Shown here: positions 5,140 through 8,574 of the stretch, one piece after another
How positions within the stretch are numbered: the stretch's first letter is position 1
Layout: the number at the start of each line of letters is the position of its first letter
Assembly: GCA_041906885.1 (NCBI GenBank)
Contig: JAYRII010000012.1
Coordinates: 94,955 to 158,954 of the forward strand
Direction of reading: 5' to 3'
DNA length: 64,000 nucleotides
DNA from: Candidatus Saccharimonadia bacterium
GTDB lineage: Bacteria; Patescibacteriota; Saccharimonadia; CAILAD01; CAZGYV01
Notes under the pieces: generated by a model
Told to the model about the DNA's origin: nothing
The model's database searches: none
Seen by the model: only the letters and a program-made list of their open reading frames with translations
Translations under genes and position numbers: made by a program

Positions 5140-5856
5140 GTGAGAGCTAGGAATTATAGGGCGCGTGGCTTGGTCATTAAGAGGCACAATCTGGGTGAGG
5201 CCGACCGGATATTGACGGTTTTTACGAGTGAGCTGGGCAAGTTGCGGGTAGTCGCTAAAGGTGTGCGTCGAGGTCGTAGCAAGCTGGCTGGCCACCTAGA
5301 GCCGTTTGTCGAGACAGAGCTTCAGTTGGCGCGTGGTCGCAACCTGGATGTGGTGACAGGCGCGCGCGGGCAGCGCTACTACTTAATCAATCAAGATAGC
5401 CTGGAGACTATCACGACGGCTTATTTGTGCCTAGAGGTTATCGACCGACTGATGGCTGACGAGCAGGCGAGCGAGCCTGTCTACGCGCTGGCCGGTGAAG
5501 TCTTAGCGAGGCTAGAGAGCGGTGTAAATTACCTGCTAGCGCGGCACTATTTCTTCGTCAAGTTTTTATACTTGACTGGCCAACAGCCTAATATGGAAGC
5601 GCGTGATGGGGCAAGTGAATATTTCTTGAATTTTGATGCCGGAGTAATCAGCGGCCAGGTCCAAGAGGGACAAGAGGCCAGGCCGATAGCTAGAGAGATT
5701 ATTAAGCTGTGGCGACTCATCTACGGTAATGATCTAGCCCAGATCAGCCGCTTGGGTGGGGTGGAGCGACATTTGGCGGCCGCCCAGGAGCTGATTGAGC
5801 TCTTCTATGATTACCACCTGCATACTCGCTTCAGGTCGGAGAAGATATTGGGGTAG
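5140..5856 (+). CDS. recO: DNA repair protein RecO
   Basis: N-terminal OB-fold signature GLVIKRHNLGEADRILTVFT, length 238 aa. Confidence 0.8.
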   Translation: MRARNYRARGLVIKRHNLGEADRILTVFTSELGKLRVVAKGVRRGRSKLAGHLEPFVETELQLARGRNLDVVTGARGQRYYLINQDSLETITTAYLCLEVIDRLMADEQASEPVYALAGEVLARLESGVNYLLARHYFFVKFLYLTGQQPNMEARDGASEYFLNFDAGVISGQVQEGQEARPIAREIIKLWRLIYGNDLAQISRLGGVERHLAAAQELIELFYDYHLHTRFRSEKILG

Positions 5857-5874
5857 GCTTTTTTAAGTTTTTAA

Positions 5875-5930
5875 CTACGTTTCGTCCTCATTAGGACTCA
5901 TCAGAACGACTATATAATTCGTTGACGTAG
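5875..5930 (-). ncRNA. hammerhead ribozyme, type III topology (open stem III)
   Basis: minus strand reads CUACGUC|AACGA-AUUAUAUAG-UCGUU-CUGAUGA-GUCC-UAAUGA-GGAC-GAA-ACGUAG: complete CUGAUGA and GAA core, GUC cleavage triplet, stem III CUACGU/ACGUAG (6 bp), stem I AACGA/UCGUU, stem II GUCC/GGAC. Confidence 0.8.
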
Positions 5931-5951
5931 CCCGCCCCTAAAAGGGGCGGG
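5931..5951. terminator. strong GC hairpin CCCGCCCC-uaaaa-GGGGCGGG abutting the ribozyme cleavage site; bidirectional hairpin between convergent recO and minus-strand ORF
   Basis: perfect 8-bp G/C stem; no clean U-tract, so probably an RNA 3'-end stabiliser rather than a classic intrinsic terminator. Confidence 0.45.
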
Positions 5952-6013
5952 TGCCACCCTAGATCATCTTGTGACCTCGGGTAGCTGGAGAAGAGAAGAA
6001 AGTCAGTGTGGCA

Positions 6014-6631
6014 TTATTTATGCCACCAGACTACCTCCTCGGGGGAGCCGGTGAACTCTCTCACCTCCTCGCGAACCGAGAAGCTCATTAGCTTCTCGGC
6101 GTGCCCATAGGCCAAGATTTGTGACCGGTTGAAGGCAATATATGCTTTGCCTTCAAAATCAGGTTTGACCGCATAGATAGGCCATTCAAAGCCTTTGTCC
6201 AGGTATTCGGACACGAAGAGCTCTGGGTCGAGCTCTTCTCCTGGGATTTTGGCTACTGATAGCCCCTCCGGGCTATCTTCGAACCACTCGATCCAACCGT
6301 TGCTTGAGTCTCCGAGAGCGAATGGCTTTCCATTCGCTACGGTAAATAGCACCCCTTCGACCCTATCTGTGCCGGTGGGGGTTGCTGCATATTCATGCAG
6401 CAACTCGATAGCCTCCTCCTTCGAGCGCACTATGTACGCATAAGAGTAGTCTTTTCCAAAAGCTACTTCGTTGAATCGGTCGGTTATTACCAGGTATGCC
6501 TGGTCTTCCATCTTCCCTCCAGGGAAGTCGTCCTCCGAGTACTCATTATTCCTCGAAGGTGGGTCATGGTGGCCACTTCTGGAGTGACCTTTCGTTTCCG
6601 CTTTTTTTTGACCCATTCGGACCTGATACAC
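6014..6631 (-). CDS. hypothetical protein (GC-richer than neighbours; His/Lys-rich N-terminus)
   Basis: 205-aa ORF; alternative ATG at 6616 (MGQKK...); no recognisable motif. Confidence 0.5.
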   Translation of the reverse strand: MYQVRMGQKKAETKGHSRSGHHDPPSRNNEYSEDDFPGGKMEDQAYLVITDRFNEVAFGKDYSYAYIVRSKEEAIELLHEYAATPTGTDRVEGVLFTVANGKPFALGDSSNGWIEWFEDSPEGLSVAKIPGEELDPELFVSEYLDKGFEWPIYAVKPDFEGKAYIAFNRSQILAYGHAEKLMSFSVREEVREFTGSPEEVVWWHK

Positions 6632-6963
6632 CTGGCCAGGTTCTTTTTTCTTAACCCGTAGGTGACCTGGTAGGTGGTATCAGAAAACTCAAGGTGCCGA
6701 TCAGGTTTTTAACCCTCACAACGTCATACATATTACCATAAGTGAAATAATATGTCAATAGTTTTGTGCCAGTCTGGAATAGCTCTATGTCTCGACCATA
6801 AAGAAAGTAGTAGATCCCCTGCGCCCTCGAAAAACAGAAAGTCGAGTTAGGAATTTAGTTGATCCAGAAATACAGCTTTGAGCGGGAGCGAGTCTGTATT
6901 TCCAACTAAAATTCTAATGAGACACTTCTAGCTTTTGAGCCCTAGGCGCGAAAGAGGCTTTTG

Positions 6964-6990
6964 CTACTTTTGGCCGTAACCCAAAAGTAG
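6964..6990. other. perfect 10-bp-stem hairpin CTACTTTTGG-ccgtaac-CCAAAAGTAG
   Basis: seen directly in sequence, immediately upstream of repeat array. Confidence 0.6.
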
Positions 6991-6995
6991 AGAAG

Positions 6996-7144
6996 AGATC
7001 CTTCGGCTACGCTCAGGATGACAACGGGGGATATACGAATAGATCCTTCGACTGCGCTCAGGATGACACTTGGTGAGCTCAGGATGACGGGGCGGCTCAG
7101 GATGATGGAGGGTGAGAGATCCTTCGGCTACACTCAGGATGACA
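6996..7144. repeat. direct-repeat array: three 28-bp copies AGATCCTTCG(G/A)CT(A/G)C(G/A)CTCAGGATGACA (6996, 7041, 7117) plus two short copies GCTCAGGATGA(C/T) (7077, 7095)
   Basis: repeats read directly; irregular 45/36/18/22-bp spacing. Confidence 0.7.
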
Positions 7145-7161
7145 GGACGAGAGAATTTAAA

Positions 7162-7190
7162 ATGACAGACCAGATCATTTAAGGTATAAT
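7162..7190 (+). promoter_or_regulatory. sigma70-like promoter ATGACA-N17-TATAAT 10 nt upstream of glyQS ATG (near-leaderless)
   Basis: hexamers and 17-bp spacer seen in sequence. Confidence 0.4.
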
Positions 7191-7200
7191 ATGGCTCAAT

Positions 7201-8574
7201 ATGGCAGAAAATAAACCTGAAAAACAATCTCATATTTCAATGGAAGAGCTAACCAGCTTCGCCAAAAGGCGCGGCTTTGTCTTTCAAGCCAGTGAGCTTT
7301 ATGGCGGCATTGCCGGCTTCTGGGATCTCGGTCCGTATGGGGTCGAGCTGGCCAGTAATATCAAAAAAAGCTGGTGGCGCGAGTTTGTCTATAAAAACCC
7401 TGAAATTATCGGCCTTGATTCGACCATTATTCAAAACCCCAAGCTGTGGCAGGCCAGTGGTCACACCGATACCTTTGTCGATCCGATGATTGATTGTAAG
7501 GCCTGCAAGCACCGTTTTCGAGCAGATCACGTGGCTGGAGTTGACACAAGTGACCTGGCCAAGCTAGACAAGGCTCTAGCAGATAAAGCTTGTCCGAACT
7601 GTGGCAAGACCAAGACTTTCACTCCAGCTCGGACTTTCGGCATGATGTTTAAGACTTACGTCGGCCCGATCGAAGACGAAGCTGCCAAAAGCTATCTGCG
7701 CCCCGAAACGGCCGGGGGAATATTTACTGATTTCGAGCTAGTACGGGAGACGATGCGAGCCAAGCTGCCATTTGGTATCGCTCAGATTGGTAAGGCTTTT
7801 CGCAACGAGATCACGCCTGGAGATTTTATATTTCGAGTGCGTGAATTTGAGCAAATGGAGCTGGAGTACTTTGTCGACCCCAAGGAGGCGAAGAAATGGT
7901 ACGAAGACTGGAAGAAAGCTTGCATGGCTTGGTGTGAGTCGATTGGCCTCTCGAAGGAAAACCTGCAATTCCACGATCACGCTCCAGATGAAAAAGCACA
8001 TTATGCCGATGCCAGCGTCGATATCCAGTATCGCTATCCGTTTGGCTTCAAGGAGCTTTATGGTATCGCTAATCGAACTGACTTTGACCTCAAGGCCCAC
8101 GCCAAAGAGTCAGGCCGCGATTTGAGCTACTTTGATGAAGCCTCGGGCAAGCGTTTCGTGCCTTATGTAATTGAGCCGTCGGTTGGTGCCAGCCGGCTAA
8201 TGCTGGCGCTACTGCTCGACGCTTATGATGAGGAAGAGGTTAGCGGCGAGAAGCGGGTCGTACTACGATTTAAGCCAGAAATAGCTCCGGTCAAAGTAGC
8301 GATATTGCCATTATCAAAGAAGCCCGAGCTATCCAAGCTGGCGCACGAAGTTTATACGACAGTAGCAGGGGAGTACAATGTCGAATATGATGAGACCCAA
8401 TCGATTGGCCGGCGCTATCGCCGCGCCGACGAGATCGGCACACCGTATTGTGTGACAGTTGATTTTGAGAGTCTCGAGGATCAGGCTGTGACCGTGCGTG
8501 AACGTGACTCGATGAAACAAGTACGGATTAAAATCAACCAGCTCAAGGGATATCTTGCAACTAGATTGAACTAG
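7201..8574 (+). CDS. glyQS: glycyl-tRNA synthetase, alpha2 (GlyQS) type
   Basis: class II aaRS motifs, length 457 aa, N-terminal FQASELYGGIAGFWDLGPYG typical of dimeric GlyRS. Confidence 0.9.
   Translation: MAENKPEKQSHISMEELTSFAKRRGFVFQASELYGGIAGFWDLGPYGVELASNIKKSWWREFVYKNPEIIGLDSTIIQNPKLWQASGHTDTFVDPMIDCKACKHRFRADHVAGVDTSDLAKLDKALADKACPNCGKTKTFTPARTFGMMFKTYVGPIEDEAAKSYLRPETAGGIFTDFELVRETMRAKLPFGIAQIGKAFRNEITPGDFIFRVREFEQMELEYFVDPKEAKKWYEDWKKACMAWCESIGLSKENLQFHDHAPDEKAHYADASVDIQYRYPFGFKELYGIANRTDFDLKAHAKESGRDLSYFDEASGKRFVPYVIEPSVGASRLMLALLLDAYDEEEVSGEKRVVLRFKPEIAPVKVAILPLSKKPELSKLAHEVYTTVAGEYNVEYDETQSIGRRYRRADEIGTPYCVTVDFESLEDQAVTVRERDSMKQVRIKINQLKGYLATRLN

Follow-up and report, generated by a model that had tools for sequence, protein, structure and literature searches.

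The recO-glyQS Spacer

The spacer between the recO and glyQS genes was analyzed in a stretch of 64,000 nt from a Candidatus Saccharimonadia bacterium (assembly GCA_041906885.1, contig JAYRII010000012.1), which in its full length is called the window. It spans 1344 nt (positions 5857-7200) and is delimited by recO (5140-5856, plus strand, Pfam RecO_N and RecO_C) and by glyQS, the class II glycyl-tRNA synthetase gene (7201-8574, plus strand, Pfam tRNA-synt_2b and HGTP_anticodon). Its minus strand, convergent with recO, carries in succession a sigma-70-like promoter, a structured 5' leader, an orphan protein gene, the hairpins of a 3' untranslated region (UTR), and a hammerhead ribozyme. The contexts of relatives, designated below by L numbers, were found via RecO homologues and via the homologue of the orphan protein (P0002) and, as judged from the comparison of these sequences, a conserved and covarying hammerhead ends a promoter-leader-open reading frame (ORF) unit; the RNA elements of this unit persist when the ORF is swapped, and the ribozyme decays when the ORF is lost.

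Hammerhead Ribozyme and 3' UTR

The type III hammerhead is encoded on the minus strand at 5874-5931, with its 3' end 17 nt from the recO stop codon, and was recognized as a match to the Rfam family RF00008 (Hammerhead_3) with a score of 42.9 bits and an E-value of 1.3e-7 when the region was scanned, or of 5.1e-6 when the scan covered the whole window under permissive thresholds. The RNA reads GCUACGUC/AACGA-AUUAUAUAG-UCGUU-CUGAUGA-GUCC-UAAUGA-GGAC-GAAAC-GUAGU, in which stem III (CUACGU/ACGUAG), stem I (AACGA/UCGUU), and stem II (GUCC/GGAC) enclose a complete core formed by CUGAUGA (C3 U4 G5 A6 N7 G8 A9), GAAA (G12 A13 A14), and the GUC cleavage site. The GUC triplet (5926-5924, minus strand) follows the N-U-H rule and the cut is predicted after C5924, between 5924 and 5923. 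Helices I and II are closed by loops while helix III is open, and the hammerhead is therefore of type III. The acceptance rule of Perreault et al. 2011 (PMC3088659) demands base pairs directly adjacent to the core, which in the window are A-U (N1.1-N2.1) and G-C (N10.1-N11.1); moreover, thermodynamic folds of the region give the three-way junction. A first-pass annotation of the same DNA, made by a model from the letters, had already placed a hammerhead in this spacer, and it proves to be the only one in the window, where the Rfam scan gave otherwise just two tRNAs and a weak match overlapping one of them. No second copy of the hammerhead or of the leader was found by nhmmer in the window or in any fetched locus, and no ribozyme of another family by Rfam with permissive filters at the locus or in the relatives' slots. 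The clustered arrangement, in which at least two ribozymes flank a gene, does not occur here, the hammerhead being single in the 64 kb and in each slot of the relatives. A terminator scan gave no terminator-like site on the minus strand after the hammerhead.

Positional orthologues score 48.0 (L013), 46.2 (L015), 39.9 (L020), and 50.6 bits (L024) against RF00008, the last alone exceeding the gathering score of 48.5. In the alignment of seven distinct hammerhead sequences, 99.1% of the cells pair, the core CUGAUGA and GAAA and the A15.1-U16.1 pair (U9-A114 of the alignment) are invariant, and compensatory changes affect 4 of the 16 pairs vs 0-1 in slid controls. These changes are located in stem III, which is CUACGU/ACGUAG in the window and UUCGCGU/ACGCGGAA in L022, and in stem I, which is AACGA/UCGUU in the window and AGCGG/CCGUU in L024, and span strains whose recO genes differ by up to 39% at the nucleotide level. 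An intact hammerhead is found at the same position in all six ORF-bearing variants. The ORF-less L020 has an A1.1/C2.1 mismatch beside the core, and so fails the rule of Perreault et al. 2011, and the ORF-less L027/L008 have lost the 5' strand of helix III and with it stem III; the loss of the transcription unit is accompanied by decay of the ribozyme, and the hammerhead is tied to the gene. A copy of the repetitive extragenic palindromic (REP)-like repeat described below is present within hammerhead loop 1 in three lineages; in L021 and L022 it is a hairpin of 40-60 nt, and the predicted fold retains the three-way junction with an extended helix I.

The 3' UTR of the cassette is strongly structured (fold z = -7.8). 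Hairpin B (5931-5951, minus strand) is a GC-rich stem-loop of 9 bp, CCCGCCCCU-UUU-AGGGGCGGG, that abuts the 5' side of hammerhead stem III and would be separated by 7 nt from the mRNA 3' end created by cleavage; a stable hairpin, variable in its loop or extension, occurs at this position in all ORF-bearing relatives. Hairpin A (5953-5985, minus strand), with the loop CACAAGAUG, is kept in L013, L015, L021, and L022 with stem changes that preserve pairing, and in L015 its 5' arm includes the stop codon of an unrelated ORF. Both hairpins are part of the conserved cassette. A third stem-loop (5993-6040, minus strand; core GTGGCAT/ATGCCAC at 6008-6026) contains the TAA stop codon of the window ORF (6014-6016) and is confined to the ORF family of the window and L013.

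Promoter and Leader RNA

The promoter-like site lies on the minus strand at 6730-6758, consists of TTGACA, a spacing of 17 nt, and TAATAT with TG before the -10 hexamer, and is conserved in L013, L015, L022, and L024. The leader that follows has about 215 nt (6512-6724, minus strand) and, in the alignment of four leaders folded with RNAalifold, is composed of a 5' hairpin, a GCACCUUGAG stretch, a middle domain that is nested and has A-rich loops, a hairpin whose loop is GAAUAAUGAGUA, and a last helix. This last helix, CUUCCC-UGGA-GGGAAG (6527-6512), contains the Shine-Dalgarno (SD) sequence beside the ATG and covaries, being CUUCCC/GGGAAG in the window, CUUCUC/GAGAAG in L022, and CCCCU/AGGGG in L024; the GCACCUUGAG stretch is invariant, resembles an anti-SD sequence, and can pair with the SD region of the helix. 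In the consensus of 56 pairs, 91.5% of the cells pair in the four leaders and two-sided changes are present in 16 pairs vs 1-4 in slid controls and 0 of 500 shuffles; the window leader alone has a fold z of -3.2.

The promoter and the leader are common to the window, L013, L015, and L022, where they precede three unrelated cargo families. The leader of L024 is a short version without the middle domain, and that of L021 (1484-1659) is largely different, a GCGGAACGAAAG followed by a hairpin being the sole motif in common with the other leaders. Within the middle domain, this sequence-hairpin motif may be what matters for function. The leader fits no Rfam 15 family in scans up to E = 10, whether searched alone or with the region: no match was better than E = 0.5, and all were far under gathering scores. 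From its anatomy we infer that the leader is a translational control element.

The Orphan Protein Gene

The gene of the window is located on the minus strand at 6014-6511 and encodes 165 aa from the ATG at 6511, which is preceded at 5 nt by GGAGGG. This start is agreed by the gene callers, in seven Logan contigs of the same organism, and by the sole homologue. The organism is present in the sequencing runs SRR31861110, SRR30909874, and SRR11913995. A reading of 205 aa, proposed in the first-pass annotation, was rejected because its GTG extension enters the leader, which evolves by compensatory base-pair changes. The protein has an isoelectric point (pI) of 4.5 and is soluble, with no signal peptide or transmembrane segment. 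That it bears no recognizable motif, as previously stated, is borne out by the lack of matches in Pfam, PHROG, PADLOC, and PDB, and a search of 5.8 billion proteins retrieved the protein itself alone.

An exhaustive phmmer search of 1.84 billion representatives gave one true homologue, P0002, which is 30-35% identical and comes from the same slot in L013. A third match, P0003, is a repetitive protein aligned only to query residues 10-48 and was read as spurious. The alignment of P0002 with the window ORF extends from end to end, with good conservation limited to 7 residues at the start and about 30 at the end. At the nucleotide level (window 6014-6511, L013 1706-2245), the ORFs are conserved only over 21 nt at the start and about 100 nt at the end, and proteins about 30% identical lie among flanking genes that are 83-87% identical in DNA. 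Such a pattern indicates either very rapid diversification or a mosaic produced by recombination. AlphaFold2 models of the window ORF (from a two-sequence alignment) and of the L024 cargo have pLDDT values of 36.7 and 31.8, respectively, too poor for fold searches.

The GC content of the ORF (0.514) places it among the top 1.6% of the 500-nt windows, in a window whose GC is 42.8% (0.428, sd 0.037), so the higher GC earlier attributed to it holds with respect to the window, but not to its neighbours, recO (0.540) and glyQS (0.499). Since these genes are equally GC-rich, GC was discarded as a mark of foreign origin in this window.

Variation of the Slot among Relatives

The content of the slot varies with the distance of RecO. 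L013 (RecO about 92% identical in aa) carries the 179-aa ORF P0002, while unrelated ORFs of 302, 172, 192, and 211 aa are present in L015 (92%), L021 (79%), L022 (70%), and L024 (60%), respectively. No ORF is present in L020 (89%) and in L027/L008 (67%), L008 being an uncultured Candidatus Saccharibacteria metagenome-assembled genome and the closest genome record by related RecO (67% identity). In L030, L031, L032, and L039 (46-49%), the slot is empty and recO and glyQS are 24-68 nt apart. The recO-glyQS synteny thus shows the cassette to be absent in the distant relatives and variable in the closer ones and, because the slot is swapped, lost, or empty among these sequences, it is an accessory locus of one subclade. 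The variation is of three kinds: allelic hyper-divergence, non-homologous replacement, and loss.

The six ORF-bearing slots (window, L013, L015, L021, L022, L024) hold five mutually unrelated cargo families, for which no similarity in any frame was detected by phmmer, tblastn, and blastn save that of the window with L013. A hidden kinship, for instance by frameshifted descent, was rejected since no tblastn or blastn match was found beyond this pair. Each cargo ORF (165-302 aa) begins with the SD-ATG that the leader provides and terminates ahead of hairpin A, or, for the stop codon of L015, in its 5' arm. All six proteins are acidic, with pI values of 4.0-5.6, and soluble; none contains a hydrophobic segment or has a family assignment. 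The GC at third codon positions (GC3) of the cargo ranges from 0.48 (L021) to 0.84 and is at or above that of the neighbours in four of the six. In particular, the L024 cargo has a GC of 0.62 and a GC3 of 0.84, vs about 0.46 in the neighbours, a composition that for this cargo alone indicates a foreign origin; a word-indexed search with it retrieved only itself.

The clearest comparison is that between L013 and L015, which are identical at 95% of the nucleotides in recO, 98% in the response regulator gene, 94% in glyQS, 92% in the leader, and 94% in the trailer, whereas their ORFs of 179 and 302 aa have no detectable similarity in any frame. The sequences diverge from just past the start codon (after ATGGAAG) up to hairpin A. 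Unrelated ORFs between near-identical flanks mark replacement rather than divergence.

Other small acidic orphan ORFs are located on the minus strand between glyQS/CofD and VIT1 in L030 (7193-7813), L032 (6187-6588 and 6766-7362), and L039 (6180-6708), those of L030 and L039 belonging to one family (38% identity). No hammerhead was found near them. This interval may be a second variable slot.

Repeats and Neighbouring Genes

Upstream of the cassette, an element like a miniature inverted-repeat transposable element (MITE) occupies 6812-6996 and consists of a long imperfect hairpin (about 6820-6950) and a perfect hairpin of 10 bp with arms at 6964-6973 and 6981-6990. The element, of about 185 nt with covarying arms, recurs at 1248-1436 in L020, in the same orientation, and at 4846-5036 in L027 and 6860-6959 in L008, inverted in both; it is absent from L015 and L024. 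Assemblies break in the region of the repeats: contigs tend to end in the MITE-like element, and the Logan contigs of the same organism stop at about 6948.

The array of REP-like repeats at 6992-7144 contains three 32-nt copies (91-100% identical) and two partial or half units and reads GTCATCCTGAGCG..GAAGGATC on the minus strand. The sequence GCTCAGGATGAC occurs seven times in the window with at most one mismatch, five of them in the array, vs 0.21 expected. Members of the family share the frame GTCAT-[stem]-loop-[stem']-ATC, in which the stems covary (CCTGAA/TTCAGG, TCCGG/CCGGA, TCTGAG/CTCAGA), and were found at 834 in L021; 5879, 8401, and 8513 in L022; 4753, 5047, 5344, and 7013 in L027; 6747 and 6829 in L008; and 1482 in L020. 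Some of these lie at other sites (L022 8401 and 8513; L027 7013), while the window copies are confined to the recO-glyQS spacer. A literature search with the repeat sequence gave only primer coincidences.

The two types of repeat are separate families independent of the cassette; they lie outside the transcription unit of the ribozyme, upstream of the promoter, and they are present, absent, or inverted independently in the relatives. The first-pass annotation had joined hairpins and array in one cassette. The hairpin over the ORF stop (6008-6026), the perfect hairpin at 6964-6990, and the direct-repeat array (6992-7144) all exist, and the two hairpins of the 3' UTR do belong to the cassette, but the 6964-6990 hairpin and the array are independent repeats.

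On the other side of these repeats, a promoter scan assigned to glyQS its own promoter-like site (7162-7190, ATGACA-17-TATAAT), which ends just 10 nt ahead of the ATG (window 7162-7201); this distance suggests that the glyQS mRNA has no leader or almost none. The glycyl-tRNA synthetase T-box leader that is located upstream in some other bacteria is absent at glyQS of the window. A response regulator gene, recognized by Pfam, precedes recO.

Proposed Mechanism and Alternative Readings

We consider it fairly probable, on the basis of sequence comparison, that the locus is a single-gene accessory expression cassette of one Saccharibacteria subclade, inserted between recO and glyQS, and that the 3' end of its mRNA is made by the ribozyme. 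The sigma-70-type promoter would drive a minus-strand mRNA whose leader of about 215 nt would hold the SD sequence in a helix; as the distal, anti-SD-like GCACCUUGAG stretch would offer an alternative partner, translation of the following ORF is probably regulated. The ORF would be an exchangeable cargo, a small, acidic, and soluble orphan protein swapped between strains, and the pattern of the swaps suggests homologous recombination in the conserved UTRs of leader and trailer. In the absence of an intrinsic terminator, the hammerhead would cleave the nascent RNA after C5924, leaving an mRNA that would end 7 nt past hairpins A and B and could be protected by them from 3' exonucleases; cleavage would also free the mRNA from read-through RNA antisense to the convergent recO. 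The processing of the transcript at its 3' end by the ribozyme, already proposed in the first-pass annotation, is the natural reading of a hammerhead that lies on the ORF strand, 3' of the stop codon, and with no terminator after it.

Several points weigh against this interpretation. The window hammerhead (42.9 bits) does not reach the gathering score of RF00008 (48.5 bits). Natural hammerheads need loop-loop contacts at cellular Mg2+, and the REP-like insertions in loop 1 of L021 and L022 might impair them, so that strict hammerhead activity may be dispensable. The statistics of covariation are thin because the sequences are few and all from related strains (four distinct leaders, representing about three lineages, and seven hammerheads). 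The cleavage, the transcription start, and the 3' end are predictions, and the protection by hairpins and the insulation of recO are arguments by analogy. Furthermore, no donor pool emerged from which unrelated cargo ORFs could first have come to stand between identical UTRs; no other copy of leader or trailer was found in the window, IMG/VR, or the JGI metagenomes.

An origin as the remnant or "moron" of a phage or mobile element, with anti-defence or defence genes as cargo and a ribozyme derived from the processing of polycistronic phage RNA, is unlikely in our judgment. Bacterial hammerheads often flank small non-conserved prophage ORFs, as around ardA (PMC3088659, PMC6155905); in addition, many anti-restriction proteins resemble the cargo proteins in their small size and acidity, more distant relatives lack the cassette, and the L024 cargo has a foreign composition. 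However, the genes flanking the slot in the window and in the relatives (response regulator, recO, glyQS, VIT1, and mraZ) include no phage, integrase, or transposase gene, no cargo protein matches PHROGs, and the window cassette gave no DNA or protein match to 50,697 phage records (tblastn, blastn). In IMG/VR, the hammerhead pattern had 0 matches and the leader pattern 4 chance matches, none fitting the leader or hammerhead profile. The ribozyme is single and unclustered, and the cassette is served by a promoter of its own and keeps a single fixed position in the chromosome over RecO identities of 60-92%. A single scan of the JGI metagenomes with the hammerhead pattern gave just an unrelated high-GC phage-like contig, L014 (Ga0181355_1055246), whose hammerhead (697-725) lies between short back-to-back ORFs, a classical prophage-type context. 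Since no mobility or phage gene, no second ribozyme, and no match in the phage collections were found, there is no positive evidence for the "selfish" and "phage-derived" readings. Of the horizontally acquired or selfish module previously suggested, what stands is the accessory nature, with empty slots in relatives of 46-49% RecO identity and ORFs replaced or deleted in closer ones, and its supposed link to phage or mobile DNA gains no support from these searches.

We give little credence to the proposal that the leader and the trailer of hairpins A and B and hammerhead are the working ends of an undescribed cassette system of the Candidate Phyla Radiation (CPR), in which unrelated ORFs would be inserted with precision between two boundaries of structured RNA, perhaps through the RNA or the ribozyme itself, the leader being possibly a new class of regulatory RNA or ribozyme. 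It is highly improbable that the hammerhead has no function, being either a chance match or a relic in decay, and that the region is no more than an intergenic site where repeats have accumulated beside an ORF that is spurious or evolves fast. The score of the window copy, the unrelated repeats that fill the spacer, and the damaged copies that persist without an ORF in L020 and L027 would agree with it, but a window-wide E of 5e-6, an invariant core with four compensatory pairs among strains differing by up to 39% in recO nucleotides, cargo ORFs of 165-302 aa that always run from the leader SD-ATG to before hairpin A, GC3 values of 0.48-0.84 (at or above the neighbours' in four of six), and the end-to-end alignment with P0002 argue against it. 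Least probable of all is a unit processed at both ends, whose leader would contain a second, undescribed self-cleaving motif and whose ORF RNA would be excised with 5'-OH and 2',3'-cyclic phosphate ends for ligation into a circular RNA or for another RNA-level step. Bacterial ribozymes are known on both sides of variable ORFs, new ribozyme classes have been found beside them, and the leader is a covarying structure without an Rfam family; yet no ribozyme family resembles it at E<=10, the anti-SD stretch and the last helix have the appearance of a translational control element, the middle domain is missing altogether from L024, and the L021 leader is largely different.

Significance of the Locus

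The role of bacterial hammerheads is not settled and most known cases are found in poorly resolved prophage contexts. The recO-glyQS spacer offers a simple, fixed, and comparable setting, consisting of a one-gene unit without terminator that is convergent with a housekeeping gene, together with natural "experiments" in which the cargo is exchanged, the cargo is lost with decay of the ribozyme, or no cassette occupies the slot; therefore, an mRNA 3' end made by a ribozyme becomes directly testable. The more unusual features, which the first-pass annotation had missed, are the conserved promoter with its structured leader, a covarying RNA without a known family, and the replacement of the ORF alone between near-identical strains of an ultrasmall epibiotic bacterium. 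The accessory orphan genes of such epibionts likely concern interactions with the host or phages and, as a guess from the small, acidic, and hypervariable proteins, the cargo could have a role in conflict (immunity or anti-defence).

Comparison with Known Systems

The repeats upstream of the cassette are similar to REP and MITE elements in their short palindromic units, conserved head (GTCAT...ATC), covarying stems, organization in arrays, occurrence in either orientation, and exclusively intergenic location, and differ in that the window copies occur in this one spacer only. The ribozyme shares with the type III hammerheads of RF00008 the full core, the GUC site, the A15.1-U16.1 pair, closed helices I and II, open helix III, and covarying stems I and III. 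It differs in scoring below the gathering threshold in the window (42.9 vs 48.5 bits; 50.6 in L024), in being located in a Saccharibacteria (CPR) chromosome, and in the tolerance of its relatives for hairpin insertions of 40-60 nt in loop 1. No paper pairing "hammerhead ribozyme" and "Saccharibacteria" was found in the literature searched, and hammerheads are unmentioned in the top-ranked papers of a wider CPR/Patescibacteria/TM7 search.

Bacterial hammerheads are often close together, flanking small non-conserved ORFs, and frequently belong to prophages, and their role is open (PMC6155905, PMC3088659). The hammerheads of prophages (Perreault et al. 2011, PMC3088659; de la Pena et al. 2017, PMC6155905) are likewise adjacent to small ORFs without assigned function and of inconstant identity, and their presumed role is to cut the transcript to gene length. 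In contrast, the window locus has a single ribozyme, on the 3' side alone, carries a promoter and a structured leader of its own, and occupies a fixed chromosomal slot without phage genes, and the ORF alone is exchanged between near-identical strains.

In mammalian CLEC2 genes, a discontinuous hammerhead is located in the 3' UTR, where cleavage sets the mRNA 3' end, removes the poly(A) tail, and lowers expression. The position in the 3' UTR of a protein-coding mRNA is common to both systems, but cleavage in the window would leave terminal hairpins, which usually stabilize mRNA in bacteria.

Integron gene cassettes and integration hotspots resemble the locus in having one exchangeable ORF per locus, a conserved structured element 3' of the ORF, and presence, absence, and replacement among close strains. 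Unlike integron cassettes, that of the window has its own promoter and leader, and the boundaries of exchange, the start codon and hairpin A, lie inside the transcription unit; no integrase-like Pfam domain was found among the called flanking genes, although no formal search for attC and IntI was made.

The leader, finally, is comparable to those that sequester the SD sequence, such as translational riboswitches, RNA thermometers, and protein-binding leaders, since in both cases a long covarying 5' UTR ends in a helix that pairs the SD beside the start codon and an alternative distal partner is available. The window leader differs from them in that it fits no known class and in that the same leader serves unrelated genes.

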